A stretch of DNA of 64,000 bases, taken from IMG/VR virus record IMGVR_UViG_3300017716_001697, positions 256,001 to 320,000 of that record; one strand, given 5' to 3'. Shown piece after piece: positions 824-23,821 of the stretch (position 1 is its first letter; each line of letters begins with the position of its first letter). The notes beneath the pieces are model-generated. The model made no database searches. It saw only the letters and a program-made list of their open reading frames with translations, and was not told the origin of the DNA. This DNA comes from a virus (lineage: Duplodnaviria > Caudoviricetes). The translations under genes were made by a program, and so were the position numbers.

Positions 824-1156
824 ATGAAGGTTACACGCAAAGATATAGCGCGAGCATTCACAGATGCGAAGAAGTATCTCTCTGATACACACATTGACAG
901 CCATGGCCAGTTTGAATACATCTGCTGGGCATTGAATCACACTACTTGCAATCACTTTGTGATAAGGGAGTGCCGCAAGATCATTAATGCTCGCCTCGAG
1001 CGCCACACAACATTCAGGGACTGGATGGAAGCTGAGTATCCAGAATTGCGTGATGCAATTGATGCAGACTACCGCTACAACAAGGGCCGCAAGATGCAGA
1101 AGGCTCGCAGTGCTTGGTTGGACTCGATGATTAAAGAGCACAGCAAAAAGGTGTAG
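824..1156 (+). CDS. hypothetical protein (WLDSMI family, copy 2)
   Basis: SD aaggga before ATG 824; C-terminal RSAWLDSMIKE. Confidence 0.6.
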   Translation: MKVTRKDIARAFTDAKKYLSDTHIDSHGQFEYICWALNHTTCNHFVIRECRKIINARLERHTTFRDWMEAEYPELRDAIDADYRYNKGRKMQKARSAWLDSMIKEHSKKV

Positions 1157-1208
1157 ACCTGGAATCACTATTGCGCTATAATACATATATCGCAACAAGG
1201 AGTACATC

Positions 1209-1379
1209 ATGGCAAGTAAGGAACAGTTCTGTACAGACGTAGGCAAGCGTGCTGAAATCTACGGCGTGGAAGATGGCAGCGACCTGTGTTTCAATCTCAT
1301 CGAGATGGGTGTTATCGTTCCGACTGACGGCATTGAAGAAGCTGCTCGCATTGTTGCACAGCACGTTCTGCAAGCATAA
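1209..1379 (+). CDS. hypothetical protein (56 aa, below ORF-track cutoff)
   Basis: read manually; promoter+leader+SD directly upstream. Confidence 0.65.
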   Translation: MASKEQFCTDVGKRAEIYGVEDGSDLCFNLIEMGVIVPTDGIEEAARIVAQHVLQA

Positions 1380-1388
1380 GGAGTCATC

Positions 1389-1610
1389 ATGAGCCGCAAG
1401 TACACAAACAAACTGTTGGAAATGGTTGACGAAGGATCCTATGATCCTAAGGAGATCATGACTATGGCTCTCAACGCTTTAAGCGAAGACGATGTCGAAG
1501 AGATGTGTCGTGCAAACGATCTTGTTGATGGAATGGGGCTCGACGATGAAGATGATGATGGTCAACCCGATGAAGCTCAGGAATGGCATGACTTTGATCC
1601 CGACTGTTAA
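1389..1610 (+). CDS. acidic hypothetical protein
   Basis: SD aggag; D/E-rich tail. Confidence 0.65.
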   Translation: MSRKYTNKLLEMVDEGSYDPKEIMTMALNALSEDDVEEMCRANDLVDGMGLDDEDDDGQPDEAQEWHDFDPDC

Positions 1611-1615
1611 ATAAT

Positions 1616-1806
1616 GCTCGCTATCACGTTAATGATAGTTTGAGCTTAGTAGGGTCTAGTTCAGGTGTTGACGTTAGGTTCTGTATCTGACACGTTGATG
1701 CTGAGGTGGTTGGCCCTACCGGACACGCATGTTAAATCACCCCACTCCTAACTAGATTGCGGCTAGTAATACAGATGACATGCAATGCTGATAGGCAAGC
1801 TATCAT
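1616..1806. ncRNA. candidate structured RNA with pseudoknots
   Basis: ORF-free; helices 1649-56/1712-19, 1673-78/1747-52, 1680-86/1769-75, 1727-32/1778-83, plus flanking hairpins. Confidence 0.5.
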
Positions 1807-1875
1807 AAATTTCTATTAATGGTTGCTCAATGATAGCTATGTGTTATAATACATACATCGCAACAAGGAGTACAT

Positions 1876-2067
1876 ATGCAAGTTCCACAAGTAGGTGACA
1901 AGTGCTGTGCAGACCCAGAGTTTGATGGCACATTCCTATACGGTGTGATCACTAAGATCGTAGACGGACTTGCGTGGTCTAACTTGCAGAAGGGTTTCTT
2001 CGGGGAGTTCTGTGGCGACATTCCTACACACAAACGTGATGGTGTGTGGGTTTATGATTCCTTCTAA
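1876..2067 (+). CDS. hypothetical protein
   Basis: promoter cassette with SD. Confidence 0.6.
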   Translation: MQVPQVGDKCCADPEFDGTFLYGVITKIVDGLAWSNLQKGFFGEFCGDIPTHKRDGVWVYDSF

Positions 2068-2312
2068 GGTGCATATGAACAACGAAGCAGTAGCAAAGAT
2101 CGTTAAGGGTATCAATCAATGGATGGCCCATGTGCGAGCTGCTGGTGACATCGCTGACATTGAGGATGCCCTCGGCGAGTACAGCGACACGATGCAACGT
2201 GCCGGTGTCACACGTAACGAGGTGTATGCGGCGTTTCGGAAACAATTTGAATAATGAGTTGACTTGGTGCCATCCTAGTGTTATAATAAACACATAGCAA
2301 CAAAGGATCATC

Positions 2313-2771
2313 ATGAAGTACTCCAAGCACATACACGTATTGCAACTGTTGTCGACAATTCCGCCTAACCCGGTTCGTGCGTATGTGAACAAACACAACC
2401 AGCCGTACCCAGCAGAATGGCTTCAACAATGCAATGATGCGTGGGATCACTTGTTCACGTACATCCATGCGAACTGGGCACGTCCTGACACAGCGATGGC
2501 TGACGGTGACATAGTCTGTAGCTACCCCACAATTACTTCTGTTCAGGGCAAGGTCGACGTGTTTGATTGTCGAGTTATGCTTGCAATGGGGCGAGACGAT
2601 CTCGAGGCTAAACTAGCGTCATTGCCTCCCTACTTCAGCGAGACGATCTTTCCGGTAGCGGTTGCTCGCTATATGCTAGGTGGCATTCATCTGAACCTTC
2701 CGATTCAGCACCGCGAGCTTACAACCTTCCACGAGTTTCACAATCGTTACGGGCGCATCATCTTGTCGTAA
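2313..2771 (+). CDS. hypothetical protein
   Basis: promoter cassette with SD. Confidence 0.65.
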   Translation: MKYSKHIHVLQLLSTIPPNPVRAYVNKHNQPYPAEWLQQCNDAWDHLFTYIHANWARPDTAMADGDIVCSYPTITSVQGKVDVFDCRVMLAMGRDDLEAKLASLPPYFSETIFPVAVARYMLGGIHLNLPIQHRELTTFHEFHNRYGRIILS

Positions 2772-2808
2772 TAATTTGTGCTATAATAAGCACAACAAGG
2801 AGCAATGC

Positions 2809-3243
2809 ATGCGTACAGTAAACGGTAATTGGAGTGCAGTGGTTAAAGAACTGCGCAGGATCGTTGTAAAGCACACTCAGTTCGAGATGCAAGAGCATGC
2901 TCACGCTTTCAGTGATGTGATGTTTACTACAGACACATTCCACCCATTTGACTGTGAAGGTGAGCGTTTGATGGAGCGTGTACTGCGTGGTATGCCAGTG
3001 CGCTGCGACTATCGCAACTGTGAGTCACTTGCTACGTGGAAGGACTTCAAGGAACAGCTCATTGATGCAGTGTACATATGGTGTGTAGAGACAGAGTATC
3101 TCATTACTGATCACTACAACGATTCGTGGAACTTCGCACCCGGTTATGTGCGCCCAGCATCCATTAAGCATGATGATTGGTTGTGGGTAGCTAACAAGGT
3201 ATTCGCTCGTGTACATCGGGCAGCATTGAAAGGTATGAAATGA
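2809..3243 (+). CDS. hypothetical protein
   Basis: promoter cassette; start moved to the ATG after SD aaggag. Confidence 0.6.
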   Translation: MRTVNGNWSAVVKELRRIVVKHTQFEMQEHAHAFSDVMFTTDTFHPFDCEGERLMERVLRGMPVRCDYRNCESLATWKDFKEQLIDAVYIWCVETEYLITDHYNDSWNFAPGYVRPASIKHDDWLWVANKVFARVHRAALKGMK

Positions 3244-3422
3244 ACAAGTATATGTGTTTCTACAACGGCAAGACTTGGGAAGTTACTGCCGACTCACTGT
3301 ATGCTGCAAAGCTGGCAGCAATTAAGATCATTTGTGCACCTCGCAAGAAAGAGCACATGATCTCAGTGGTCCTATACGAGAAGGAAGGCACGCCAGTAGT
3401 AGTTTCAACAGCATCACTTTAA
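3240..3422 (+). CDS. hypothetical protein
   Basis: ATGA overlap with previous ORF. Confidence 0.6.
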   Translation: MNKYMCFYNGKTWEVTADSLYAAKLAAIKIICAPRKKEHMISVVLYEKEGTPVVVSTASL

Positions 3423-3479
3423 TTGTTGACTTGGCTTCAGTTCTGCCATATAATACATACAAGTAACAAGGAGTAGCAG

Positions 3480-3803
3480 ATGACACAAGTAATTTTGCAC
3501 ATGTTGAAGCCAGAACTGATGATTAACATGTACACAGGCGGCATGGATAATCAGCTCGAGCAAGCCCGCAAGATGATTGCTGAAGGTGGCTACGAGGCAG
3601 TTGTTGTAGACGGCATCGGGGAAGGCAAAACACACACAGTGGAAATTATTGCCGACGAGATGTTCGATCTCACTAACAATCCAAATCGGCAGGATGAGCG
3701 CGAAGAAGCTTACGGACGTGGTCGGTCTCTTAGCGTAGGGGACATTGTTGAAGCCAACGGCGCGAAACTGTTGTGCTGCTCCTTTGGTTGGAAGGCGGTC
3801 TAG
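3480..3803 (+). CDS. hypothetical protein
   Basis: promoter cassette with SD. Confidence 0.65.
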   Translation: MTQVILHMLKPELMINMYTGGMDNQLEQARKMIAEGGYEAVVVDGIGEGKTHTVEIIADEMFDLTNNPNRQDEREEAYGRGRSLSVGDIVEANGAKLLCCSFGWKAV

Positions 3804-3804
3804 T

Positions 3805-4146
3805 ATGCAAGTCACTACATCCACTATCACACGTATTGCAGACGCAGACATCCCCGCAGGGCGTTGCCGTTGCCCGGTTTGTGATGGTACGATGGAAGTA
3901 GGTGCTAATGAGTACCAGAAGAAGTACAAGAATGTGATTGCAGGCTACAACCTCGCTAACGATACTGTGCGATGCAACAATTGTGGAGGCCAATACATGT
4001 TTGGCTCGCCTAAGGGGCATGTTAAGCCTAATGCTGCAGGAGATGGCTGCTGGCACGACTATGCTGGCACAAACGCAGGGCGCTGCCGCACTGACTACAA
4101 GTGTACGCATTGTGGCGACACATATCAGATCGATTCTGGCGATTAA
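3805..4146 (+). CDS. Cys-rich zinc-ribbon-like protein
   Basis: CPVC, CNNC, CWH, C..YKCTHC motifs. Confidence 0.55.
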   Translation: MQVTTSTITRIADADIPAGRCRCPVCDGTMEVGANEYQKKYKNVIAGYNLANDTVRCNNCGGQYMFGSPKGHVKPNAAGDGCWHDYAGTNAGRCRTDYKCTHCGDTYQIDSGD

Positions 4147-4204
4147 AGGTAGACAAGGAACCTTTTCCTTGTTATAATCAATACATCGCAACAAGGAGTA
4201 CATT

Positions 4205-4585
4205 ATGGAACTACAGTTTAACCCTAACGCTATCGCAAGCAAAGCAATTGAGAATCATTTCAATGCTTGTATATCCTCAGGCATTGACGTATGCATTACG
4301 GCAGCAGATGACAACAGTGTCACACTTGCACCATGGCGGTTCGGCAATCCACTGCCAAAGGAGTTCACACTCCGGCAGCGCGTAGCAGGCATGGGTGCAT
4401 GTGTTGGTGGATACCTGAAGATTGAGCACACAGTGAAACACGACTTGAAAGGCAAGAAGTGCTTTATCACGCTCGGTGGCACTATGAAGCAACCCACAAT
4501 CAAGATACGGTTGGATAGTGCTGCGAACCGTGGACCTAGTAAGGATGTTGCGTTGATTAGTTTCGACCCAAAGTACACCCCTTAA
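4205..4585 (+). CDS. hypothetical protein
   Basis: promoter cassette with SD. Confidence 0.65.
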   Translation: MELQFNPNAIASKAIENHFNACISSGIDVCITAADDNSVTLAPWRFGNPLPKEFTLRQRVAGMGACVGGYLKIEHTVKHDLKGKKCFITLGGTMKQPTIKIRLDSAANRGPSKDVALISFDPKYTP

Positions 4586-4646
4586 TAAAGGTTGGCAGGG
4601 AGGTAACTCCCTGTTATAATAAACACTTAGCAACAAGGAACACATC

Positions 4647-4877
4647 ATGACAACACCCACAGTTGATCAAATTGCCGACGCAGCAGAGCAGGCATGCTTC
4701 TACGTCACTCCTGCTGGGCTATGGCTCCGCATGGACTTCTGCGATATGGATGCAGGTTGCTTCCAAGCACACGACGAAGACTCCGGCGAGGAGTATCGCT
4801 TCGAGTTCGAAGAAATCAAGCTCGAGGGCAAGGAAGAGTTTCACAAACTCGTAAAAATGGAGGTACCTGCTGCTTAA
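4647..4877 (+). CDS. hypothetical protein
   Basis: promoter cassette with SD. Confidence 0.65.
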   Translation: MTTPTVDQIADAAEQACFYVTPAGLWLRMDFCDMDAGCFQAHDEDSGEEYRFEFEEIKLEGKEEFHKLVKMEVPAA

Positions 4878-4915
4878 CTGTGTTATAATAAACACTTAGC
4901 AACAAGGAGTAGGTT

Positions 4916-5224
4916 ATGACTGTAGTGGAAAAGGATTGGCACGGTAACTGGCGTGCTGAAGATCGCATTGCACTCGCCGATGGTCGCACTGCAGAAGTTG
5001 TTACACACAAGGTGTATAGCGGCTGTGTAGTCACATCTGTGCAAGTGGGCAAGCGTAGTGGGCCTGTGTTTGAGTTTACGAATGTAGACTTTCGCACTAA
5101 CCTGAAGAACACAGTGCCTAGTCGTGCAACGTCTAAGTATGTTGCAGCTCAGCATCAAGAGGTGTTGCAGGGCATCGGCCAACTGAAGCTGCAGATTGCT
5201 GCATACTACCTGACACACGCCTAA
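4916..5224 (+). CDS. hypothetical protein
   Basis: promoter cassette with SD. Confidence 0.65.
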   Translation: MTVVEKDWHGNWRAEDRIALADGRTAEVVTHKVYSGCVVTSVQVGKRSGPVFEFTNVDFRTNLKNTVPSRATSKYVAAQHQEVLQGIGQLKLQIAAYYLTHA

Positions 5225-5225
5225 C

Positions 5226-5423
5226 ATGTTACTAACAGGGATACAACTCAAGGATGTCATTGTGCTGGAAGAGCATCATGCTGTCCTCACAGAGTCTGGC
5301 TGGGTTATCCCCGAGTGGTTGGTTTACCTCCGAGAAGAAGTAACCAAGCGTGATCTCGGTCCTGCTTTACTTGATCGATTTGTTCATATAGACCAAATAA
5401 CAGTAGACCAAAAGACTGTTTGA
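5226..5423 (+). CDS. hypothetical protein
   Basis: coupled to upstream ORF. Confidence 0.5.
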   Translation: MLLTGIQLKDVIVLEEHHAVLTESGWVIPEWLVYLREEVTKRDLGPALLDRFVHIDQITVDQKTV

Positions 5424-5465
5424 CCTTATAATACATACATCGCAACACACTAAGGAAGTTTACAG

Positions 5466-6605
5466 ATGTCCCATATCCAAGTCAGCATTACAAAAGGCGT
5501 TTATCGTGGCAAAGTTATCAGCGGCGTGTATCCGTTGGTTAAGGGATTTGTTGATGGTGCCCGTGGCGGCTTTGTTACAATCAAGAACATCAATCACGAC
5601 GCAGGCACTCCAATGGTGCAACGTGTGCAAGTTGAAGCAGACGCATTCAAGCTGCTGGATGCCACAGGTGCAGACTTGCCAGCGCACATCGTTGTGCCGG
5701 GCGCAGTTGCAGCAGTAGATGCTCCAGAGACGGACTTCGAAGCAGTGTTCATGGAGTCTGAAACAGAAGACGAAGCTATGGAGCGTATTGCTTCTACGTT
5801 CGACATGCTGGATAAGATCACGGATGCGGCATCCAGCGGCATTGTGCGTGGACTCGTTGTTAGCGGCCCACCCGGCATTGGCAAAAGCTTTGGAGTTGAA
5901 AAGCAACTCGCAGCAGCTAACATGTTCCGCACGCTGGAAGGCAAGGATCCACTGTTCGAAGTTGTAAGCGGCGGCGTTAGCAGCATCGGGCTGTATCAGA
6001 AGCTGTACCACAACCGCTCTGCAAAGCAGGTGCTGGTGTTCGATGACTGCGACGGCGTGTTGTTTGAAGAAGAATGCCTTAACTTGCTGAAAGCTGCATT
6101 GAACAGCGGAGACAAGCGTCGCATTTGCTGGAACAAGGAATCGCGTGTATTGGCTGTCGAAGACATCCCTGAAGCGTTCGACTTCGAAGGCAGCATCTTG
6201 TTCTTGTCCAACATTGACTTTGATCGCAGCATTGCTAAGGGCTCGCGTATCGCTGCACACTTGTCAGCTATCATGTCACGCTGCCATTACTTGGACTTGG
6301 AGATTGGTAGCCTGCGTGACAAGCTGTTGCGTATCAAGCAGATCGTGCGCGATGGTATGTTGACACAGTTCGACTTCAGTGCACAGCAGGAAGCAGACAT
6401 TGTGGCTTTTACTACAGACAATGCAGAGTATCTGCGGGAAGTGTCACTGCGTATGGTTAAGAAGATCGCAGACTTCATGAAAGCGGACCCTGTGGGCTGG
6501 TATGAAATGGCGGAAGCTACGTGTTTGACTAAGGAAGCTAAGTTCAAGCGTCTGTTGCAACGTAAGCAGCAGGAAGCCGAGCGTCGCGGGATTGCACTAG
6601 CATAA
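5466..6605 (+). CDS. AAA+ family ATPase (phage type)
   Basis: Walker A GPPGIGKS, Walker B VLVFDDCD, sensor-like FLSN. Confidence 0.8.
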   Translation: MSHIQVSITKGVYRGKVISGVYPLVKGFVDGARGGFVTIKNINHDAGTPMVQRVQVEADAFKLLDATGADLPAHIVVPGAVAAVDAPETDFEAVFMESETEDEAMERIASTFDMLDKITDAASSGIVRGLVVSGPPGIGKSFGVEKQLAAANMFRTLEGKDPLFEVVSGGVSSIGLYQKLYHNRSAKQVLVFDDCDGVLFEEECLNLLKAALNSGDKRRICWNKESRVLAVEDIPEAFDFEGSILFLSNIDFDRSIAKGSRIAAHLSAIMSRCHYLDLEIGSLRDKLLRIKQIVRDGMLTQFDFSAQQEADIVAFTTDNAEYLREVSLRMVKKIADFMKADPVGWYEMAEATCLTKEAKFKRLLQRKQQEAERRGIALA

Positions 6606-6620
6606 CGCATGCATGTACTA

Positions 6621-6650
6621 AATAATAGGCCCTTCGGGGCCTATTATTTT
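6621..6650 (+). terminator. Rho-independent terminator
   Basis: aataataggccc-ttcg-gggcctattatt + T tract. Confidence 0.8.
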
Positions 6651-6711
6651 GATTGACACGGTAGATTGACAGTGTTATAATCTAAATGTTAGTAACAAAC
6701 CAGGAGTAATC

Positions 6712-8082
6712 ATGAAAGTTAGTCTTTTATCGGTAGTCCTTGTAGCATCTAGTATGCTACTTGGATGTGGTGGCGCTATGGAAGCCACTATCGTTGCAGC
6801 ACCGGAAGCTGTGACTCTTGCAGAAGCAGAAGAAGTGGGCGCGGAGCCATTTGGTAGTGTTGAAAGTACAGTGCTCTATATGACGCCTGCACAAGTTCGC
6901 ACACGATATGGATTCGACAGTTTGCCCAATACACCCGCTGCACAAGGCAGTGGCCAGCTGATTGCAATCATCAGCGCCTACAATAACCCGGACTTGGCTG
7001 CAAATTTGCAGGCATTCTCGGCCAAATACAACCTACCACAATGCACCACAGTGCCTACAGTATATACCCAGTTGCCTACAGGCTACACGGGGACGACTGT
7101 ATCGCATCCACCTACAGGCCGCGGGTGTACATTGCAAGTCATTAACGTGGATAGTTTTGGTCGGGTGACTAAGATGGTTCCACAAGGTGGGCCGGCAACA
7201 GCACCATGGATGATGGAATCCACTATGGACATTGAGTGGGCGCACGCAATTGCACCACAAGCAAGCATATTGGTAATTCAAGCACCCAGCATCTTTGTTG
7301 GTGCACTCGGTAATGCGGCAAAGTATGCAAGTAGCGTGGGAGCCGACGTTGTTTCAATGTCGTGGGGTGTCAATGAGACTTCACAACAATGTACACGCAA
7401 GCCCGGACAACCTACTGTGAAGTATGTTTCTACATGCGACGATGCGGCAACAGCAGCAAAATATTGGCAAACCGTGGACACTATGTTCGCTGGTTCGGCA
7501 ACATTTGTAGCGGCATCCGGCGACCGTGCAGTTCTACAGTGGCCATCCATTAGCCCTAAGGTAATGGCAGTCGGCGGCACGAATGCATATGGTCCAGCTG
7601 GCAAAGACACTGCATGGCCATTGTCAGGAGGCGGAGTTTCTAAATCGTTTCCTGCACCTAGTTGGCAAGCAAACCACATGAAGGCTGCAAACAGGAATGT
7701 ACCAGACGTATCACTTGTTGCTGGAACACCGGTGGCAGTCTACATCAAGCCAAATGCTAAGACTGGATTTGACGACTCAACTTGCGTAGCAGCGAAGGGT
7801 GAAAGTGGCTGTGGATGGTATGGTGGTGGTGGTACTAGTGCAGCGGCACCTATGTGGGCAGGCATTGTGGCAATCACTAATGCTATGCGTATTGCGGGCA
7901 GCATGAAGAGTACAGAGTTCGTTTCATCGTTATACACCAACGTCGCTAGTGTGCGCGGCACCTATGCATCTTCATTAGATGATGTTATAGTTGGAGCACA
8001 TGCTAATGAAGGATATGACATTTCGACAGGATTGGGTGTACCTAATGCCAACAACCTAATCAACTACATGGCATCACGATAG
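6712..8082 (+). CDS. S53 (sedolisin/kumamolisin-like) serine peptidase, probable lipoprotein
   Basis: signal peptide with LLGC lipobox; ESTMDIEWAHAIAP, ASGD and GGTSAAAP motifs. Confidence 0.8.
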   Translation: MKVSLLSVVLVASSMLLGCGGAMEATIVAAPEAVTLAEAEEVGAEPFGSVESTVLYMTPAQVRTRYGFDSLPNTPAAQGSGQLIAIISAYNNPDLAANLQAFSAKYNLPQCTTVPTVYTQLPTGYTGTTVSHPPTGRGCTLQVINVDSFGRVTKMVPQGGPATAPWMMESTMDIEWAHAIAPQASILVIQAPSIFVGALGNAAKYASSVGADVVSMSWGVNETSQQCTRKPGQPTVKYVSTCDDAATAAKYWQTVDTMFAGSATFVAASGDRAVLQWPSISPKVMAVGGTNAYGPAGKDTAWPLSGGGVSKSFPAPSWQANHMKAANRNVPDVSLVAGTPVAVYIKPNAKTGFDDSTCVAAKGESGCGWYGGGGTSAAAPMWAGIVAITNAMRIAGSMKSTEFVSSLYTNVASVRGTYASSLDDVIVGAHANEGYDISTGLGVPNANNLINYMASR

Positions 8083-8103
8083 TCTAAGCAACTATCTAAC
8101 AAG

Positions 8104-8126
8104 GGCGGTCTTCGGACCGCTTTTTC
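8104..8126 (+). terminator. Rho-independent terminator
   Basis: ggcggtc-ttcg-gaccgct + T run. Confidence 0.8.
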
Positions 8127-8185
8127 TTGACTATTCGTTGCGAGGCTGCTATAATGAATGCATAACTTAAACAGGAGACACATTT

Positions 8186-8431
8186 ATGTCATTCACAACC
8201 CTTACCTCTACCCAAAAGTCCTTCGTCGAGCAACATCTGCGAGGCACAGGTCGGGCATTGTCCGAAGCTCAAGCCCGCGAAACCTACGGCATCATGAATC
8301 TACGTGCTGTCGTTAGTTCAATGCGTGACTCGGGCTTAGTAGTACGCAAGCAAAAAAACACAGCTGGCCGTACTGCATATGCTATTAGCCGTAGAGACGT
8401 TGCAGGTGTTCAAAGCAAGATCTTTGCTTAA
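8186..8431 (+). CDS. small winged-helix/HTH-like DNA-binding protein
   Basis: LSEAQARETYGIMNLRAVVSSMRDSG pattern typical of small phage wHTH proteins. Confidence 0.55.
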   Translation: MSFTTLTSTQKSFVEQHLRGTGRALSEAQARETYGIMNLRAVVSSMRDSGLVVRKQKNTAGRTAYAISRRDVAGVQSKIFA

Positions 8432-8448
8432 CATCCAAAACGGGTAAT

Positions 8449-8477
8449 AAGAAGCCACCTTAGGGTGGTTTTCTTTT
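8449..8477 (+). terminator. Rho-independent terminator
   Basis: aagaagccacc-ttag-ggtggttttctt. Confidence 0.75.
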
Positions 8478-16459: not shown

Positions 16460-16523
16460 AAAATAAAGGTAGACACAGGAACCGTTCTTCGTTATAATTA
16501 ATACATCGCAACAAGGAACTAAT

Positions 16524-16697
16524 ATGCTTACAAGGTCAGAACGCAAATCGATGGCAAGTGACATTATCTCGGCCATGCGTGACGCATATGAACAGGAAGG
16601 CGTAGAGGGGGACTTTGACGACGGATATCGCCATCTCTCGGAGGATGCCACCGACGGCGAGTTGCAAGCAGACTACGACAAGTGGTGTACAAAATAA
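16524..16697 (+). CDS. acidic hypothetical protein (57 aa)
   Basis: read manually; promoter cassette with SD. Confidence 0.6.
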   Translation: MLTRSERKSMASDIISAMRDAYEQEGVEGDFDDGYRHLSEDATDGELQADYDKWCTK

Positions 16698-16754
16698 CAG
16701 TAGACAGCAGCATCCAATGCTGCTACAATAACACATCGCAACAAGGAGCACACG

Positions 16755-16952
16755 ATGGCCCGCACACCAGCAGAACGTATGGCAGAAGCAGCACGCTACA
16801 AACAGCTCACGGAGGAGGCTACAAAGCCCGCACAGCCGTCGCAGCAGCATCCTGCAGGGTACTACAGCAACCAGCGCATTACGCAGCGTAACGGTGGTGT
16901 ACGCCCTCTGTTCGTACGTGATATCGGCGGGTGCAGCGACAACTATCGCTGA
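16755..16952 (+). CDS. hypothetical protein
   Basis: promoter cassette with SD. Confidence 0.6.
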   Translation: MARTPAERMAEAARYKQLTEEATKPAQPSQQHPAGYYSNQRITQRNGGVRPLFVRDIGGCSDNYR

Positions 16953-17025
16953 GGCTTAGGCCAAATAAGTGTTGACATTCTGTTTCTTTAACGTTATAAT
17001 AAACACATAGCAACAAAGGAACTGT

Positions 17026-17235
17026 ATGTCACAACCGACAACTATTGCACAATTCGCAGAAGCTTGCAAGACGCTAACAAGTGATGAAGTGTTTGAATTC
17101 TTCGAATTCGAAATCAGTGATGCACTTCGCGATGAGATCTATAGCATGTCTCGCACATCTAGTCACGAACCATGTCGTGATGCACTCGAACAAATCGGTA
17201 AGCAGTTCAACGTTCAAAGTTTAATTGATTATTGA
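17026..17235 (+). CDS. hypothetical protein, tandem paralogue A
   Basis: FA.ACK.LTSDE...FEF.IS..LRD shared with next ORF. Confidence 0.75.
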   Translation: MSQPTTIAQFAEACKTLTSDEVFEFFEFEISDALRDEIYSMSRTSSHEPCRDALEQIGKQFNVQSLIDY

Positions 17236-17298
17236 AAATAATTGTTGACACAGTGTTTCGTTGTCGTTATAATAAACACATAGCAACAAAGGAACATC

Positions 17299-17499
17299 AT
17301 GCAAACTGTACAAGATTTCGCACTAGCTTGCAAGCATCTGACAAGCGATGAGATCTACGACTTGTTCGAGTTTGATATCTCGCAGGAGTTGCGTGACACA
17401 ATCTACGCAGAAGCCGAGATTGACAGTGCAGAACCTGTGCGTGACGCATTCAACAAGATTGGCGTGCGCTACAGTGTGCAAACGCTTGCAGATTATTGA
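17299..17499 (+). CDS. hypothetical protein, tandem paralogue B
   Basis: same motif as 17026-17235. Confidence 0.75.
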   Translation: MQTVQDFALACKHLTSDEIYDLFEFDISQELRDTIYAEAEIDSAEPVRDAFNKIGVRYSVQTLADY

Positions 17500-17559
17500 A
17501 AATAATTGTAGCACAGCTTCAAAACTGTGCTATAATTGTTGCAACAGAAGGAGTATACA

Positions 17560-17838
17560 ATGGCTAGCATCACAAAGGTAGACAAGTTGCGCATTGCAAC
17601 AGCGCTCAATAGCGAATTGATTGCGTTCGTTAATGACGGCGTGACGGCTGGTGACGGTGCACGCATTACCGTCACCAGCAATAAACTACAGCATCCTCGT
17701 GTAGATAAGAGCTGGGCGCGCAGTGCACTCGAGAGCCGGGCACTCGAACGCATCACAACTATCCGGCAGATATATGGAAGTTCTGGCGGCACCAAGCTAG
17801 GCCCGCGCCCGAAACTGCGAGATTACGTATCAAAATAA
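17560..17838 (+). CDS. hypothetical protein
   Basis: SD aaggag before ATG 17560. Confidence 0.65.
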   Translation: MASITKVDKLRIATALNSELIAFVNDGVTAGDGARITVTSNKLQHPRVDKSWARSALESRALERITTIRQIYGSSGGTKLGPRPKLRDYVSK

Positions 17839-17889
17839 GATGTAACAGTGGTTGCATTAAGTTGAAATCACTGTTACAATAACTACATA

Positions 17890-18240
17890 GCAAATTAACA
17901 AGGACACTTGTTTCTAATTCTACAGCTAGTTCCGCATCGTTTTGGGGCTGTTCAAATAATGAAAACTATGCAAGCAGGGTACTGCCGATAGTGTAGCACG
18001 TTACTGGTGCTGATGCTATCGAGAGTGCGCTGGAGTAGGTGAAGGCCTACTGTAACATCGGCCATAGAAGAGACCGTGTTACATTGACAAATCGTGGTCG
18101 CCAGCAAACTCTCCATGTAAGTGCTGTGCGCTTTGTGGGGCATGCGGATAGTGGAGAAAGCGAGTAAGGGCTGCATTAACTTTTGTCTGCCTGAGGACTA
18201 CGCTAAAGCCACCTAGCAAAAAGATCGGTGCCCCACTTTT
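17890..18240 (+). ncRNA. candidate structured RNA or long 5' leader
   Basis: follows a cassette promoter with no sizeable ORF; helices 18034-39/18046-51, 18051-57/18077-83, 18135-43/18228-36. Confidence 0.4.
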
Positions 18241-18254
18241 TTATTGAGGATAAG

Positions 18255-18473
18255 ATGGCTACGTATTCTTGCAAATGCTGTAAAGAACCCTTTGAAGCAC
18301 GTGAGGCTGATCGCAAACGCGGCTGGGCAAAGTTCTGCAGCAAGTCCTGCAAAGCAAAGAAACAGGAAGCACGTACCGGGCAGTATAAGGCATACCTCGA
18401 ACGGAAAGATACCGACTTTGACGTCGATGCCTACCACGCCGAGGATCCTGGATGGGATGCCCACAAGTTTTAG
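18255..18473 (+). CDS. zinc-finger-like protein
   Basis: CKCC..F....D..RGW.KFCSKSC. Confidence 0.65.
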   Translation: MATYSCKCCKEPFEAREADRKRGWAKFCSKSCKAKKQEARTGQYKAYLERKDTDFDVDAYHAEDPGWDAHKF

Positions 18474-18528
18474 TTGACATCAGCTTCCATCTGCGCTATA
18501 ATAAACACATAGCAACAAAGGATACAGA

Positions 18529-18831
18529 ATGAATTGGTTACCAGCCAAAGGCGAATTGTTTTATGTGCGTCACAAGCCACGTAAGATGCCTGTACGTGAT
18601 GTCGATGGCGAAGTGGTTGCAGCCGTGGACCACCAGGATGGCTCGTACCGCAACGATATCTTCCGCCTCAAGGGCAGCGATGACACAATGATTGTAGCAT
18701 ACTTCGCGTATGTGAGTGGAAGCACGTACGGTATGGAGAAGCCTCAGATGTTCCGACGCGATGAGTGGACAATCAGCCCTGTGGGACCCGAGGTGGCAGC
18801 AGCACTCAATCTGAAAGTGTCGGTTGACTGA
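18529..18831 (+). CDS. hypothetical protein
   Basis: promoter cassette with SD. Confidence 0.65.
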   Translation: MNWLPAKGELFYVRHKPRKMPVRDVDGEVVAAVDHQDGSYRNDIFRLKGSDDTMIVAYFAYVSGSTYGMEKPQMFRRDEWTISPVGPEVAAALNLKVSVD

Positions 18832-18858
18832 TTAACCCAACTACGCTATAATAAGCAT

Positions 18859-19074
18859 ATGACAAACAAACAAAAACGCATTGTAGCATTCATTTTAATG
18901 ATTGTTACGTTGATTTGCATAGCAATCCTTAGCCTCCCGTTCTACCAGACCTTAATGATGTGTTTCGGTGGCTGGCAAGTAGGGCGATGGGCTGGCGACT
19001 GGGGTCGTGCAGCGTGGCCTGATCCTGTGCCTCAGCCTACACCGTCCGACGATGACAACACGTTCGAGGGGTAG
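18859..19074 (+). CDS. small membrane protein
   Basis: N-terminal hydrophobic helix. Confidence 0.55.
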   Translation: MTNKQKRIVAFILMIVTLICIAILSLPFYQTLMMCFGGWQVGRWAGDWGRAAWPDPVPQPTPSDDDNTFEG

Positions 19075-19076
19075 TC

Positions 19077-19316
19077 ATGTTTGGTGCACAACTGCGATGC
19101 CCTACGTGCAATCAGTACAAACCTGATCGTTGCACCTGCAACAAAGACCCCTCGCTGAAGGGTGTGAAGGGCGGTAATTGCAATCGTACGGCTTGCCAGA
19201 AGCCTGGAGCACTTTGGTATAACAGTGGATCCTGGGCCTACTACTGCCGTGCATGTGCTCGTGATATCAACAAGTGCTGCCCCAAGGATGAACCGCTCTG
19301 CACAAATACTGAATAA
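19077..19316 (+). CDS. Cys-rich hypothetical protein
   Basis: CPTC, CNRTAC, YYCRAC motifs. Confidence 0.6.
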   Translation: MFGAQLRCPTCNQYKPDRCTCNKDPSLKGVKGGNCNRTACQKPGALWYNSGSWAYYCRACARDINKCCPKDEPLCTNTE

Positions 19317-19734
19317 AGCTGTAGACAGGATCCATTTTCGGTGCTATAATTAACACATAGCAAACAGGAGCACAGCATGGAACTTACCGAATTGCAGAAG
19401 ACACGCATAGCATACGCCCACTTCACGTTGGATGAGTGGAAGCTGATTGCGCGGTGCATTAGTCACACCCGTGCCGATTTGTATGGCACCAAGCAAGCAA
19501 TTGACCCGGATAAGTTGCGGGATATACTTGTAAAATTCCCATCAGCTGTGCTATAATACAGCATAGCAACAAAGGACACTGCAATGGAATTCCTAATAGG
19601 ATTGTTTATCTTCTGCATAGGGTTAGGGTTCTATACAGCCAGCATCCCAGTTGCAGCAATGGCGTTTGGCGGCGCACTAGCAGTGGTAGCGTTGTTCCAG
19701 TCCCTGCTTAACTATCTCAACAGAAGGCGTTAAC

Positions 19735-19923
19735 ATGCAAAAAGGTTTCACAATCATCGAGCTGCTGATCGTAATTGCCATCATTGGCATTATAGCAGCA
19801 GTTGGCGCAGCGGCAATCAACGGGCCTCAGACGCAGTGCATCGGTGGCTACATGTTCACCAAGAACGTTCGCACGCCTGTGCAAGTGATGGATGACAAGG
19901 GCCACGGCATTCCCTGCAAATAG
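19735..19923 (+). CDS. mini type IV pilin-like protein
   Basis: class III signal MQKG|FTIIELLIVIAIIGIIAA; two Cys in C-domain. Confidence 0.75.
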   Translation: MQKGFTIIELLIVIAIIGIIAAVGAAAINGPQTQCIGGYMFTKNVRTPVQVMDDKGHGIPCK

Positions 19924-20338
19924 TTGTTGACAGTTGGCAGAATCCTGCTATAATTAACACATAGCAAGCAAACACACAAAGGAGTTAGTTATGTTACTAG
20001 TCAGAGCTTATAATGAGCATTGCGACAAGGCAGCAGCAGAAGGATTCAAGCCCTTGCCCCGGTCGCGCTTTCTGGATGTGTTGTGGGCAATCTTTAAAGC
20101 ACGCAACGCCTAGTAACAACAAGCCCAACGTGACAGGCCGATTGCACGTTGATCCTCAACTCTTAAACATTCTTAATTAGTCCCTTAGCGAGGTGGGGCA
20201 ATAATGCAATAAGTCAAGCATATATAGAAACACATTTATAAGAGAAAGGGGCCCACATGCCCCTTTCGTCACGGCAAATATCTGTTGACACTTGGTTCCT
20301 TTGGTGCTATAATTAACACATAGCAAACAGGAGTACAC

Positions 20339-20629
20339 ATGCAAGTAGATGCAATTCTAGCAGGTTTGGCAAAGGCTCGTCAACGCTTAATGTGCATCGA
20401 TGGTGCATACACAGCAGATCAAGCGCAGCACCGCCTTAGCATTATCTCCGTCATGCGGGACTACGCACTCGAGGAAGACGGTACAGGCTTCGCTAGCTTC
20501 TGTCAACGCACCCTCGCAGGAACTGATGGCGACATCATGGTCGACCTGCTAGAGGAGTTGTACGAAGAATTGGGCAAGGACCCGGAAGTTTGTATGTGGG
20601 ATGAATTTGAAATGGAATTCCTTCAATAA
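20339..20629 (+). CDS. hypothetical protein
   Basis: promoter cassette with SD. Confidence 0.65.
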   Translation: MQVDAILAGLAKARQRLMCIDGAYTADQAQHRLSIISVMRDYALEEDGTGFASFCQRTLAGTDGDIMVDLLEELYEELGKDPEVCMWDEFEMEFLQ

Positions 20630-20882
20630 CAGTTGACAACTGCATCCAACAGTGCTATAATCATTGTAACACAAAGGCACACATGCAAACCACAAAGATC
20701 AAGAAGAAGGACCAAGAAGGAATGATTAGCTCCTTCTGGGCAATGCTCCAGGAGTTGGAGAATCAGGCAGAGAACACGCTCGACAAGCACTTCGTGGAAA
20801 AATACTACGAGCAGTGGAATCGAATCACAGGCGACAACAAGGTTGCACGTTGGAATCGATAAAGGCAGTTTAACAGATATTA

Positions 20883-20905
20883 GCGGCTAAGGCCGCTTTT
20901 ATTTT
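20883..20905 (+). terminator. Rho-independent terminator
   Basis: agcggc-taag-gccgct + T-rich tail. Confidence 0.7.
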
Positions 20906-21335
20906 GGCCATATAGTTCTCGCATAAGAGCGCGATCCTTCTTATAATCGTTGCCGAGAACTATAGCCTTAGGTGTCGCGATTCGCCGCCTAAAGAATCGC
21001 CTTAACCACAGATCCTCGGAGTTAGGGCACGCACCTAGCTGATAGCGTGCAACCTTGCCGAGGCTAATTTCATGCCACAGCCGTAGGTGTATTACACAGT
21101 GTTTATGAGCTAATTTTAGCAGGTTTAGGCAAAGGTTGCGACGATTCTTTAAGACAGATTCATTAAAGTTCTCGCAACTACTATACCGACGGCTAAGGTT
21201 GCGTGCAATAACTCCGAGACTATGTCGACAAAGGTGATGACAGATTACTCAGCGATCATACAAGCCTCGGCCAGGCGGATCAAGGCCACTGATGAGTAAG
21301 TCCACGAACCGCTGAGTGTAACAAGATGTAACAGT
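20906..21335. ncRNA. candidate ~430-nt highly structured RNA
   Basis: ORF-free; helices 20911-21/20954-64, 21015-24/21209-18, 21045-60/21190-206, 21135-41/21172-78, 20991-99/21142-50. Confidence 0.6.
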
Positions 21336-21413
21336 CTAAATATCGCTTGCCCAATGCTTCATCCTGCCATATAATTACTACATAGCAACACAATAGTAAC
21401 GCAAAGGTACACT

Positions 21414-22025
21414 ATGAAGCACATCACACAAGCAGAAGCTAACACAGCCTGCGCACTCCACGCTAACAACAACACACTGACTGTTGCACAATTGCAACAA
21501 CTGTTGGGCAACGTAAGCGTCACGTTTGCCACAATTGAATACGTTACAGCCGTGCAAACAGCGGCAGCGCACAAGGGCCAGAACATCAAGAAGGTGACGA
21601 AGGCCAATGTTATCCTGTGCAGCAACATCGCAGCGCATACAAGCGTGTACGCTAACATGGTGAAGAAGACTGCCGCTACCATTGCTGACAATGATCAAGC
21701 TGCTGTAGCTGCATTTACACCCCAAGCTAACTACTTTGAGCACACTGACTGCCACAGTATTGTGCAGCACAAGGTGCATACTGACAAGTTTTATTTGTAT
21801 GTAATTTACAACGCCGCATCCAGTATCTACTTGCACAATGGTACCCCTGTTACGAAAGTGGACATTATTCCATTCCTTACACCAAGTGGTGCACGTGACT
21901 TGATGGCTGGTACTGATGTCGTGGAAAACAAGACACATGGTATCAAGCACCGTGTCGCAGTACGCACGATTGCACTCAGCAACATCGTAAGCATCAAGGC
22001 TCGCAAGCAATTTGTAACAGTGTGA
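21414..22025 (+). CDS. hypothetical protein (203 aa)
   Basis: promoter cassette with SD. Confidence 0.7.
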   Translation: MKHITQAEANTACALHANNNTLTVAQLQQLLGNVSVTFATIEYVTAVQTAAAHKGQNIKKVTKANVILCSNIAAHTSVYANMVKKTAATIADNDQAAVAAFTPQANYFEHTDCHSIVQHKVHTDKFYLYVIYNAASSIYLHNGTPVTKVDIIPFLTPSGARDLMAGTDVVENKTHGIKHRVAVRTIALSNIVSIKARKQFVTV

Positions 22026-22233
22026 AATAGTTGTAGACAGGGTGGAAACATCCTGCTATAATTAACACATAGCAAACAGGAGCACTACATGGACCCCAAA
22101 GCAAAGTATACAGTAGAACAAGTTCAAGCAATGATGATGTTGGAAATGCATCGCATCACTTGCACATATGTCAACCTCATGGGACGCCTTGGCGTCAAGC
22201 AGCTGACATTGCATCGCTTCTGAGGAGTACAGC

Positions 22234-22428
22234 ATGATAAACGGCAGACTCAAAACATTGGAGAACCTGACTGAGCTCTTGTACTCTGAGCTCAAGGCGT
22301 GTGCTGATGATCCTGCCGTGACTGAGCAGACCTTTGCACTGCTCAAGGCGGCGGCAATTGTTACCATCGACTTGAAGCGCAAGATTGAACTGGCCCGCGG
22401 TTGGAACACACTAGGAGCAGCAAAATGA
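22234..22428 (+). CDS. hypothetical protein
   Basis: SD gaggag. Confidence 0.55.
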   Translation: MINGRLKTLENLTELLYSELKACADDPAVTEQTFALLKAAAIVTIDLKRKIELARGWNTLGAAK

Positions 22429-22985
22429 AGTCGTGGAAGAGGGAGTGGGCAATAAGCCAGGTAGTGAATAACTGGCGCATCCGCAAGCGGCTTCCTCGTA
22501 TCACTGCCCTTGCTGTCAAGCGTGGATTGATTGCACTCAAAGGTGATGGCAGCTATCGCAATGCTGAGCGTGGCGACAACGATTACCGAAATTAGGAGCA
22601 GCAAAATGAAGACATGGAAGAATTGGTTTGCATGGTATCCAGTGGCCTTCGGGCCTCACATCAAGTGGCTGGTTACGATACAGCGATACTACAACTCCGA
22701 GGAGAAGTCTTGGTACTATCGGAGGCTACCTTCGGAGATATGTGCTGTGCCTCGCGTGCGCAAAGAACAAGACATCGACTGGGTGGCGCGACTAAAAATA
22801 CTTCTTGCCCGCCCCTCCAAGTAGTGCTATAATAAACACATAGCAACAAGGAATACATCATGTTAGGCCACTACAAACAGCTTCTTGCACACGTTGCACG
22901 TTCACAACGCCAGCAATTCAAGCCGCTTACACAGACGCAGTTCATTAAGATTGCAGTCAAGATTGTAACAGCTTAGGAGCACAAC

Positions 22986-23237
22986 ATGACACAGACAGTA
23001 GCTGAATGGACACGCGATTGGTACGAGCGCCGCTTCCTGGGCCGTATCCCAGTGTTCATCCGCCTGCGTGTTAGATATGGTTGGTACACCTATCGCAAGT
23101 CCGAGGGGCATCCAATCACATTGCGTCGAGCATTCTTCTCGCAGCCACCACGATTCGGATCATACGAAGAGCACGAGGTAGGTTGTCCAGACTGGGCATT
23201 GCGTGACTACAAACTGGTTGCAATACAATCCAAGTAG
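22986..23237 (+). CDS. Trp/Arg-rich hypothetical protein
   Basis: SD aggag. Confidence 0.55.
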   Translation: MTQTVAEWTRDWYERRFLGRIPVFIRLRVRYGWYTYRKSEGHPITLRRAFFSQPPRFGSYEEHEVGCPDWALRDYKLVAIQSK

Positions 23238-23273
23238 TGCTATAATAGCTGCATAGCAACGCAAAGGTACACT

Positions 23274-23639
23274 ATGACAACAGCCACATACACATTCGAC
23301 AACGACATTGCAGGCGACTTGCACAAGGATGCATACGGCTTCCGCCCACACTCCAGCTGGTGGGCTGCGTGGGCCATTATGTCGGATGCTGAGAAGCAGC
23401 AGGAGTGGGACCAGCTTGTCGAATCAATGAAGACACGTGAAGCATCTCGTATCGAATGTGAGCAGCAAGCGATAGTCCGCTTCGAGACCCTAGTGACTAA
23501 GACTGTCACAGCAGGAGCAGCGAGCCGTGCAGACGCTATCAAATGGTTGATGCAGGGTGAAGAGGTGAATGGTGACACCAACTACTTCGAGTACCTAATG
23601 GGTATCCCCTACGGTCACGTTGTTACAACTACGTGTTGA
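23274..23639 (+). CDS. hypothetical protein
   Basis: promoter cassette; DLHKDAYGFRP motif. Confidence 0.7.
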   Translation: MTTATYTFDNDIAGDLHKDAYGFRPHSSWWAAWAIMSDAEKQQEWDQLVESMKTREASRIECEQQAIVRFETLVTKTVTAGAASRADAIKWLMQGEEVNGDTNYFEYLMGIPYGHVVTTTC

Positions 23640-23821
23640 CAGCAGCATCCAGCTATGCTATACTAACAGCATAGCAACACAAAACATATCATGTACTACG
23701 CAAACATCGCAGCAGCTATCGGATTTGTCGTACTCGCAATCATGGAGTATCGCAAAGGATCCCGCGGCGTTGCAGCGTTTAACGCAGCCTTTGCATTAGC
23801 TAACATCGCAGCTACCACACC

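Follow-up and report, generated by a model that had tools for sequence, protein, structure and literature searches.

Reiterated promoter-leader elements of an uncultured jumbo phage probably act as PeSL-type early cassettes and recombination points

The left part of the window (the 64,000-nt stretch of phage DNA analyzed here) carries a family of reiterated promoter-leader elements, and we consider it likely that they represent composite PeSL-type (promoter-early stem-loop) cassettes for early regulation that double as recombination points. The concept itself has already been published as PeSL for T4-type phages (PMC2839356, PMC4122927). The source genome (364,576 bp) is that of an uncultured freshwater jumbo phage, which is a jumbo myovirus other than T4-type. 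Its baseplate protein shares 47% identity with the counterpart in Pseudomonas phage PA5oct. The phage encodes a RecA/UvsX-like protein; sigma70 regions 2 and 4 were not found in its genome.

RESULTS

A promoter-rich region of small genes

The elements lie in the following region, whose GC content is 46 to 49% (genome, ~41%).

1145..24600, plus strand, hyperplastic, predicted early region with ~66 small, mostly ORFan genes and 41 host-type promoters

The genes of the region belong to no family or only to families of unknown function, based on a Pfam scan of the 12 largest of the ~67 region proteins. Only two paralogue pairs were found among these ~67 proteins, namely, genes 17026 and 17299 and genes 8612-9061 (plus strand) and 15795-16217 (minus strand), and each of the four genes has its own element. 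The plus-strand ORF 15781-16065 was rejected as a gene, as it is the antisense of the real minus-strand gene 15795-16217.

The earlier note had described about 40 shared promoters, and our analyses bear this out: between positions 1154 and 23664 of the window, the plus strand carries 41 sigma70-type promoters and the minus strand 2. When TTGACA-N17-TATAAT was searched with ≤2 mismatches, 51 sites were found in the window versus 12.7 ± 3.6 expected, and 38 of them fell on the plus strand between 1154 and 23664. The box CAT(A/C)GCAACAA follows 32 of the 41 plus-strand promoters; the other 9 lack it. An exact 26-mer that had been noticed previously was recovered at all five of its positions, whereas shuffled sequences are expected to contain none:

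2282..2307, plus strand, exact 26-mer copy 1, from the -10 hexamer to the Shine-Dalgarno site
12334..12359, plus strand, exact 26-mer copy 2
16995..17020, plus strand, exact 26-mer copy 3
17268..17293, plus strand, exact 26-mer copy 4
18497..18522, plus strand, exact 26-mer copy 5

The genome-wide PWM count that the earlier note had proposed returned 37 plus-strand and 2 minus-strand matches of ≥20 bits, all of them at 211.6 to 279.7 kb of the genome, versus a shuffled maximum of 5.7 bits. An independent pattern search of the genome gave 33 forward, 0 reverse, and 0 control matches, all at 195 to 280 kb.

The promoters are distributed as follows (coordinates after each description are -35 starts).

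1145..5465, plus strand, nine elements: 1154, 1822, 2259, 2759, 3426, 4150, 4592, 4861, 5404; weak -35 at 1822, 2759, and 4861; truncated box at 2759
6644..8611, plus strand, three consensus promoters without the box, around two large genes: 6653, 8127, 8502; canonical hairpin-plus-T terminators upstream of 6653 and 8127
10050..14096, plus strand, ten elements: 10059, 10509, 10848, 11229, 11590, 11944, 12311, 12766, 13123, 14042
14490..15097, plus strand, two box-less promoters: 14490, 15060; ATG 5 to 6 nt 3' of the -10
15795..16373, minus strand, inverted cassette: 16277, 16364; gene 15795-16217
16461..20338, plus strand, eleven elements: 16470, 16701, 16972, 17245, 17508, 18474, 18824 (leaderless candidate), 19322, 19528, 19927, 20285
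20624..23690, plus strand, six elements: 20633 (divergent leader), 21347, 22034, 22805, 23218, 23636

Judging from their sequences, the promoters at 14490 and 15060 (and that at 18824) are candidates for producing leaderless mRNAs.

Anatomy of the element

With +1 set as the A located seven nucleotides 3' of the -10, information content exceeds background from -44 to +14. Both this +1 position and the early class are predicted from the consensus alone. The cassette begins at its 5' end with the stop codon of the upstream gene within an A-rich stretch, and in 22 of 38 elements this stop codon either overlaps the -35 or ends ≤12 nt from it. The sequence AAATA is kept at -44 to -40. A near-consensus -35 (TTGACA or TAGACA) is followed by a 17-nt spacer, often with TG or CG at its end, and then by TATAAT and an A-rich discriminator that ends in AC. 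The predicted start A, T(A/C)GCAACAA, and a strong Shine-Dalgarno site complete the element, with the ATG being 25 to 26 nt 3' of the -10 in most copies.

These data also allowed the description in the earlier note to be refined. It had reported a conserved 20-nt leader; the conserved transcribed part comes to ~14 nt, and the Shine-Dalgarno site makes up the last 5 to 7 of these. Likewise, ~24 promoters precede a single gene (our own tally from the gene and promoter lists), whereas the others precede 2 to 4. Nor does every small gene have its own promoter, since the 41 promoters have ~66 genes behind them, of which 29 are internal and promoter-less.

The box is tied to the promoter rather than to translation

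In all 32 box-bearing elements, the box lies 8 to 9 nt 3' of the -10, while its distance to the ATG varies between 14 and 29 nt. Shine-Dalgarno sites are present at the 29 internal genes, where the box is absent, and GCAACA occurs upstream of just 3% of 128 other genes. In six related contigs, moreover, the promoter and box stand upstream of a non-coding stretch between tRNA genes. Because the box is absent from internal genes, anchored to the -10, and also present before non-coding DNA, it is tied to the transcription start or to the mRNA 5' end and is not a feature of translation in general. The earlier note had not told the Shine-Dalgarno part apart from this -10-anchored box.

The element is shared by a phage clade

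Two related uncultured jumbo phage contigs, G001 and G003, carry 35 and 22 copies of the element, respectively. An exact 22-mer was found in 50 IMG/VR loci, most of which encode proteins 35 to 57% identical to those of this genome, and the element is retained across phages whose proteins are just 35 to 80% identical. In relatives with CATAAT as the -10, the leader is unchanged. In a further 340 promoters from the clade, positions -2 to +3 are retained as A, C, A, T, and A, and the leader is rich in A and C. The 22-mer did not occur in any of 185,579 bacterial and archaeal species genomes and so is not a host motif. Near and distant DNA searches with the left 24 kb found no match among cultured phages, and a 35-nt element query gave only chance-level matches to them (E values of 0.4 to 4).

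A subset of the elements contains hairpins

The genome, G001, and G003 have hairpins in 8 of 39, 13 of 38, and 5 of 21 elements, respectively. Their number is above chance (7 versus 1.2 ± 1.1); GNRA loops are present in 12 of 26, and the stems show compensatory changes. In the window, the following were located on the plus strand.

4150..4178, hairpin-type promoter, 8- to 9-bp stem between the boxes
4592..4620, hairpin-type promoter, 7- to 10-bp stem with GTAA loop, bridging -35 and -10
11229..11257, hairpin-type promoter, 7- to 9-bp stem between the boxes
14037..14070, hairpin replacing the -35, 8-bp, GC-rich, and terminator-like, followed by -10 and box
16701..16729, hairpin-type promoter, 8-bp stem within the spacer
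17503..17536, hairpin, 12 bp, overlapping the -35 position and the -10 hexamer
22034..22062, hairpin-type promoter, GAAA loop

The 29 nt of the last of these recur in G001 upstream of a different gene. Canonical terminators were not enriched in the region (25 versus 17.7 ± 3.8), so the units are delimited by promoters and are not established as separate transcripts. The hairpin between -35 and -10, present in about one-fifth of the copies, probably acts on read-through RNA from upstream, either as a terminator or as a 3' end.

Relatives are joined within the element

The earlier note had proposed that the element serves as a homology hub, and comparisons between relatives support this proposal in that their indels and replacements join inside the element. 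Among 18 elements shared by G001 and G003, 9 are flanked by homologous DNA on one side only. These two contigs also differ by a 246-bp one-gene indel whose crossover lies inside the 20-nt leader. The junctions fall variously in the -35, the spacer, the -10, or the leader, and such variable junction points fit homologous recombination. For the phage's own lineage, the evidence comes from one contig with 80% likeness, and it concerns the following two units.

10502..10840, plus strand, one-gene cassette (gene 10563-10844) between two identical 36-nt promoters
16957..17235, plus strand, cassette carrying gene 17026-17235 (member of a paralogue pair); skipped in the near relative's contig

The near relative is without 10502-10840 (339 bp), and 36 letters fit both sides of the joint; these 36 letters correspond to the promoters at 10509 and 10848, which are identical. 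The 36-nt promoter had no exact match among metagenome contigs, and a protein search of those contigs yielded relatives at 54 to 60% identity only, which leaves no second close relative for breakpoint mapping. In G001, gene order is partly shuffled, and homologues were found for 22 of the 67 proteins.

Neighboring elements are no more alike than distant ones (P = 0.28 for the leader and P = 0.14 for the spacer), and only a coarse regional subtype bias was detected (P = 0.001). Selection for viable recombinants would likewise be expected to leave mosaic junctions at gene borders. Breaks of Logan contigs at elements in the probable source run were considered as signs of recombination and rejected as an assembly effect, because the exact repeats exceed the word size; the short joints of these contigs were left out. 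No RNA run is listed with this stretch, and one run labeled RNA-Seq (X6) is probably DNA and was set aside as a source on expression.

DISCUSSION

Alternative explanations

Two alternatives concern the function of the box. It could be the site, at about -6 to +9, of one dedicated phage or host factor that acts on all units, such as a DNA-binding early repressor (the earlier note had offered one regulator that switches all early genes off as its other option) or, by analogy with T4 RegB and RegA, a translational repressor or nuclease that binds RNA. No known RNA polymerase requirement is as uniform as the box, which is anchored to the start site and confined to these promoters; it is also retained where the -10 of relatives differs, and it is specific to the clade and missing from bacterial genomes. 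We nevertheless regard a dedicated factor as rather unlikely. A profile search of the genome (E ≤ 1) found no RegB (PF10715), RegA (PF01818), or AsiA (PF09010) homologue. Furthermore, inspection of the consensus reveals none of the dyad symmetry expected of a dimeric repressor's site, and the wider clade keeps the start context and A/C richness but not the exact box. A dedicated factor would be compatible with the cassette reading. That the box serves purely as a translational enhancer, i.e., as an unstructured A/C-rich leader selected at the RNA level, is less probable again, even though A makes up 51% of the leader and T 8%, the box adjoins a strong Shine-Dalgarno site, and the predicted mRNAs fold weakly over their first 50 nt (-3.9 kcal/mol, compared with -9.3 for random 50-mers drawn from the region; P = 3e-13). 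The internal genes of the region are just as weak in structure without a box, long leaders still have the box beside the -10, and relatives place it upstream of a non-coding stretch.

The remaining alternatives address how the repeats arose or are used. The earlier note had called the arrangement integron-like without an integrase. In an integron-like site-specific system, the repeat would be the attachment site of a dedicated recombinase, and one-gene units between repeats and relatives that differ by whole-cassette indels do recall such a system. We consider it very improbable, and the label does not hold: no tyrosine integrase (PF00589) was found in the genome and no recombinase among the 12 largest region proteins (Pfam), the exchanged segments share long identical stretches (36 nt) as in homologous recombination, and there is no fixed crossover point. 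The variable junction positions within the element refute a site-specific system. Least probable of all, in our estimate, is that the repeats are remnants of recent tandem duplication of promoter plus gene, with the leader unselected. The two paralogue pairs, each member with its own element, would fit such an origin, but the remaining genes are mutually unrelated, flank similarity is gone at -45 and +15, and the element is kept across phages with strongly diverged proteins; this option was ruled out given that the coding regions lack similarity.

Comparison with known systems

PeSLs have been described in the phage pairs RB49/phi1, T4/PST, and KVP40/nt-1 (Arbiol et al. 2010, PMC2839356; Comeau et al. 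2014, PMC4122927). Like PeSLs, the elements analyzed here open with the stop codon of the upstream gene in A/T-rich sequence, continue with a strong sigma70-like promoter, and close with a Shine-Dalgarno site plus start codon at the 3' end. Both families number tens of copies, which cluster upstream of ORFans in hyperplastic regions, and the junctions of indels and replacements fall inside the repeats. The subset with a stem-loop between -35 and -10 corresponds to the commonest PeSL class. However, a stem-loop is found in only ~20 to 35% of the copies here and so is not a general feature, the start-site-anchored CAT(A/C)GCAACAA lies outside the PeSL description, and PeSL phages are T4-type, whereas this one is a 365-kb jumbo myovirus.

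The host-takeover module of the Bacillus phage SPO1 (Stewart et al. 1998) reportedly comprises about two dozen small early genes that the host polymerase reads and whose promoters and ribosome sites are unusually strong, which makes it resemble the present region. It differs in host group and consensus, and to our knowledge neither a shared leader box nor a recombination role has been described for it. The N25 promoter of coliphage T5 starts with A followed by T and A, as does the predicted transcript of the element. According to the literature on N25 and other strong T5 early promoters and their initial transcribed sequence (Kammerer et al. 1986, via PMC5961368; PMC12464699), these promoters are of the host type and close to consensus, and their transcribed +1 to +20 part adds to strength; that work deals with single promoters and escape and has no reiterated box family or recombination role. 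The related jumbo phage PA5oct depends on host RNA polymerase and has tens of consensus promoters (32 of the form TTGAC/TATAATA), but a conserved leader box and cassette shuffling are not reported in the accessible part of its description (PMC7318152). PA5oct showed no DNA similarity to the window.

Proposed mechanism and implications

If the elements are PeSL-type cassettes, the host's housekeeping RNA polymerase would read all units right after infection. The fixed start region would give a defined start site and easy promoter escape, and the minimal, G/T-poor, unstructured leader would ensure strong expression of any gene placed behind it. The start sequence may thus aid escape or start-site choice. 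Initial transcribed sequence can shift promoter output >10-fold (PMC5961368), although the literature offers no simple motif for fast promoter escape. Because ~40 copies of a 50- to 60-nt sequence stand head to tail, intervening genes can be deleted or exchanged; by comparison with relatives, homologous recombination between copies probably deletes, duplicates, moves, or replaces them. Such copy-to-copy recombination would also keep the element family alike and the region hyperplastic.

It is also conceivable, albeit doubtful, that the box is a common, clade-wide tag of the early regulon for a putative phage factor. If so, this factor would time the shut-off, decay, or translation of ~40 units at once and would recognize the tag either in the DNA (-6 to +9) or at the 5' end of every early mRNA.

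Under the cassette reading, the PeSL principle, whereby a reiterated promoter/leader both expresses accessory genes and serves as their crossover point, would work beyond T4-type phages in an uncultured clade with genomes of 350 to 385 kb from freshwater and wastewater, and this case comes with junctions at the nucleotide level. The box, which keeps a constant spacing to the -10, offers a compact candidate for a promoter-proximal element. The element as a whole would mark early, fast-evolving accessory genes, which are candidates for functions in host takeover and anti-defense.

Distribution and anatomy of the repeated element

The element combines a sigma70-type promoter, a start region and a Shine-Dalgarno sequence, with a box, CAT(A/C)GCAACAA, downstream of the −10 hexamer. 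The 26-mer that runs from the −10 through the Shine-Dalgarno sequence was exact at all five places where the earlier note had reported it, an occurrence not expected by chance. When the window was searched for TTGACA-N17-TATAAT with at most 2 mismatches, 51 matches were obtained, relative to 12.7 ± 3.6 in shuffled sequences, with 38 of the 51 being plus-strand sites from 1154 to 23664. Scoring the genome with a weight matrix built on the complete element yielded 37 plus-strand and 2 minus-strand sites of at least 20 bits (best shuffled score, 5.7 bits), all confined to genome 211.6 to 279.7 kb. An independent pattern search gave 33 forward matches, no reverse matches and none in controls. Site by site, 41 plus-strand promoters were tabulated, and 32 of them carry the box.

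Elements on the minus strand accompany an inverted gene with 42% identity to gene 8612-9061.

15795-16373, minus strand: two elements before the inverted 140-aa gene at 15795-16217 (weight matrix and gene position)

Copies in both orientations were also found in G001, which, like G003, is a related uncultured contig with a dense element array. The plus-strand ORF at 15781-16065 is antisense to the inverted gene and is probably not a gene.

With the presumed +1 set by consensus at the A seven nt past the −10, information content exceeds background from −44 to +14 and is zero beyond either side.

−44 to −40: AAATA, often holding or abutting the upstream gene's stop codon
−36 and −35 hexamer: G, then TTGACA or TAGACA
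17-nt spacer: pyrimidines near −23, −22 and −18; (T/C)G at −15/−14
−10 hexamer: TATAAT, then an A-rich discriminator with an AC end
Start region: A, T, (A/C), GCAACAA, into AAGGAG or AAAGGA
Start codon: ATG, 25 to 26 nt past the −10 in most copies

The upstream stop codon overlaps the −35 or lies no more than 12 nt from it in 22 of 38 cases. What was described earlier as a conserved 20-nt leader resolves into a 6-nt discriminator, the first ~9 nt of the predicted transcript and the Shine-Dalgarno sequence.

Two further observations concern subsets of promoters (elements are named by their −35 starts). The hexamer GGTTCC recurs at ~−27 to −22 in the spacers of 10509, 10848, 11590, 12311, 12766 and 20285, and its reverse complement, GGAACC, is present in those of 4150, 13123 and 16470; this hexamer also occurs in G001 spacers, and hairpins do not account for it. 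Separately, consensus-type promoters at 14490-14526, 15060-15097, 18824-18861 and possibly 24268-24305 have an ATG 5 to 6 nt past the −10, all without box and Shine-Dalgarno sequence, and their transcripts would be predicted leaderless mRNAs.

Position of the box and its retention in relatives

All 32 copies place the box 8 to 9 nt past the −10, whereas the box-to-ATG interval varies from 14 to 29 nt; even in elements with long leaders (5404, 13123, 19927 and 21347), the box still adjoins the −10. Promoter-less genes of the region (n = 29) have good Shine-Dalgarno sequences but no box, and GCAACA is found upstream of only 3% of 128 other genes in the genome. In six related contigs, promoter and box stand ahead of a ~400-nt ORF-free stretch between tRNA genes (6144-6560 in the IMG/VR locus L001 and five near-identical loci, L034, L035, L045, L046 and L049). 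This stretch, in which the GCAAC of the box is able to pair with GTTGC 14 nt downstream, is probably a non-coding RNA. Given the fixed −10 distance, the box-free internal genes and the box before an ORF-free stretch, the box is a feature of the transcription start or mRNA 5′ end and not a general translation signal. Weak folding is predicted for the first 50 nt of the cassette transcripts (−3.9 kcal/mol, with random 50-mers at −9.3; P = 3e-13) and likewise for the start regions of internal genes.

The exact 22-mer formed by the −10 and the following 16 nt was recovered at 50 IMG/VR loci, on contigs of 4 to 353 kb, and these loci hold 155 element-like sites. Most encode proteins 35 to 57% identical to scattered parts of the phage genome, and the loci are members or fragments of one broad uncultured jumbo phage clade. 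Dense arrays were detected in two contigs (35+1 and 22 pattern matches in G001 and G003, respectively; 0 in controls). In relatives with a 72 to 73% identical AAA-like protein, the −10 is CATAAT, yet ACATACATCGCAACAAGGAG is kept. A set of 340 further clade promoters, picked irrespective of their leaders, does not preserve the exact GCAACAA. It does retain the start context (A/T at −6; A at −4, −2, +1, +3, +5 and +7; C at −1; T at +2), and its leaders are rich in A/C and poor in T/G. The start context is thus constrained over the long term, and copying among cassettes must account for whole 26-mers being nearly identical inside one genome. No match to the motif was obtained in 185,579 prokaryote species (one genome each), and matches in cultured phages were at chance level only.

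Junctions within elements

Homologues of 22 of 67 proteins were identified in G001, some in the original order and several displaced (those of the genes starting at 18529, 3240, 1876, 11288 and 11645, with 10563 swapped with 11019). Between G001 and G003, identity changes from block to block (67 to 98%) in a mosaic, and many block ends fall inside elements. Element pairs with homology on one flank or more numbered 18; it extended to both sides in 9 of them and to one side only in the other 9. At one G001 junction, the left side is identical to one G003 element and the right side to the next; because the switch lies within a shared 20 nt, CACATCGCAACAAGGAGTAG, a 246-bp one-gene cassette is missing from G001. 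In other pairs, homology begins at the −35, spacer or −10 or stops in the leader.

A 15.5-kb contig of a near relative, from sequencing run X6 (labelled RNA-Seq but probably DNA), is collinear with eight blocks of 4001-20339 at ~81 to 93% identity. Missing from this contig is 10502-10840, where 36 letters fit both sides and correspond exactly to the promoters at 10509 and 10848, which are identical to each other. Two further absences are 16957-17235 and 6670-8070; in the latter, 11 other letters take the place of the subtilase-type protease gene (6712-8082), which in the window has its own promoter and terminators. The contig also follows the −35 of element 11229 with a different −10 and leader, and these run into the start of gene 11645.

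These element-internal junctions, namely the 246-bp indel in the leader and the absence of 10502-10840 at 36-nt promoters, bear out the earlier proposal of a homology hub with indels breaking at the repeat. The accompanying suggestion of an integron-like arrangement did not hold. Since junction positions vary, identical overlaps are long, no tyrosine integrase was found in a search of the genome and a RecA-like gene is present, the comparisons point to homologous, not site-specific, exchange at the elements.

Immediate neighbour elements are no more alike than distant copies, and subtypes show a regional bias: to the right of 16.9 kb every typed element (12 of 12) has CATAGC, versus 6 of 15 on the left side (P = 0.001). 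Some promoter halves have been copied independently of their genes, since 10509 and 10848 share 36 identical nt and two G001 sites share 46, and the 29-nt hairpin promoter at 22034 has a letter-for-letter copy before a different gene in G001. Gene duplication was ruled out as the source of the repeats because only two paralogue pairs exist among ~67 proteins (17026/17299, and 8612-9061 with the inverted 15795-16217).

Genes, transcription units and hairpins

Most products tested have no Pfam or PHROG family or belong to families of unknown function only, the exceptions being an AAA-like, a subtilase-type protease and an SprT-like protein. The promoter number behind the "about 40 one-gene cassettes" of the earlier note stands (41), whereas the one-gene description fits only some of them: when genes per promoter were tallied by hand from the gene and promoter lists, ~24 units contained a single gene and the others 2 to 4. 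Canonical terminators are not enriched (25 versus 17.7 ± 3.8); the units are thus delimited by promoters, and read-through between them is likely.

The share of elements with a hairpin that bridges the −35 and −10 or replaces the −35 is 8 of 39 in this genome, 13 of 38 for G001 and 5 of 21 for G003. Counting only perfect stems of 6 bp or more gave 7 elements, relative to 1.2 ± 1.1 with shuffled spacers, and 12 of 26 hairpins have GNRA loops. Stems show compensatory changes, among them GGGAG/CTCCC versus GGGTG/CATCC arms and a G-T pair replaced by A-T between orthologues.

Genome setting

The source record (364,576 bp) is one virus record with direct terminal repeats and is estimated to be complete. 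Myovirus structural proteins are encoded in the window's right half, including the following.

46151-57670, minus strand: 3839-aa virion structural protein with repeated baseplate-wedge-like and Hc2-like segments (PHROG 10938)

The window also encodes a 1321-aa baseplate wedge protein, which shares 47% identity with its counterpart in the Pseudomonas jumbo phage PA5oct and 35 to 39% with the counterparts in CBB-like, Atu_ph07 and SCTP-2 jumbo phages. Near and distant DNA searches of the left 24 kb returned no match among cultured phages, and the best DNA match to the stretch is a freshwater metagenome. Since no sigma70-family factor was found in a whole-genome search, we infer that the consensus promoters are read by the host sigma70 polymerase.

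The cassette region (window 1-24000; genome 255-280 kb) is the GC-richest part of the genome (46 to 49% versus ~41%). The homologous array of G001 (contig 92-128 kb) has a GC content of 41 to 52%, with flanks of 35 to 40%, and the dense arrays of both related contigs likewise lie within GC-rich blocks. Possible causes are a difference in codon usage or in origin, and biased gene conversion. Elsewhere, 26046-34021 contains no ORF of at least 150 aa, has a GC content of 37 to 38% and shows strong positive GC skew.

Comparison with known cassettes and interpretation

Every tested feature of the promoter-early stem-loop (PeSL) cassettes of T4-type phages (PMC2839356, PMC4122927) was found here, save the general presence of a stem-loop. 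The hairpin subset matches the commonest PeSL class, in which the stem-loop lies between −35 and −10 (PMC2839356). Unlike the PeSL phages, this phage is not T4-type, and its start-site-anchored box goes beyond PeSL features. For PA5oct, the nearest cultured relative, part of the published report lists 32 TTGAC/TATAATA promoters and makes no mention there of a leader box or shuffling (PMC7318152).

The box could be read by a dedicated regulator, although we regard this as unlikely, as no homologue of RegB, RegA or AsiA was found in the phage genome. The initial transcribed sequence can affect output more than 10-fold, albeit without a simple motif (PMC5961368), and the box may benefit start-site choice or promoter escape. 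We consider it probable that the element is a PeSL-like regulatory cassette, presumably early in timing, with an expression-optimised start region and a reiteration that makes it a crossover point for gene shuffling. The start region would confer strong expression on whichever gene stands behind it, and crossovers between the reiterated copies would shuffle the genes.
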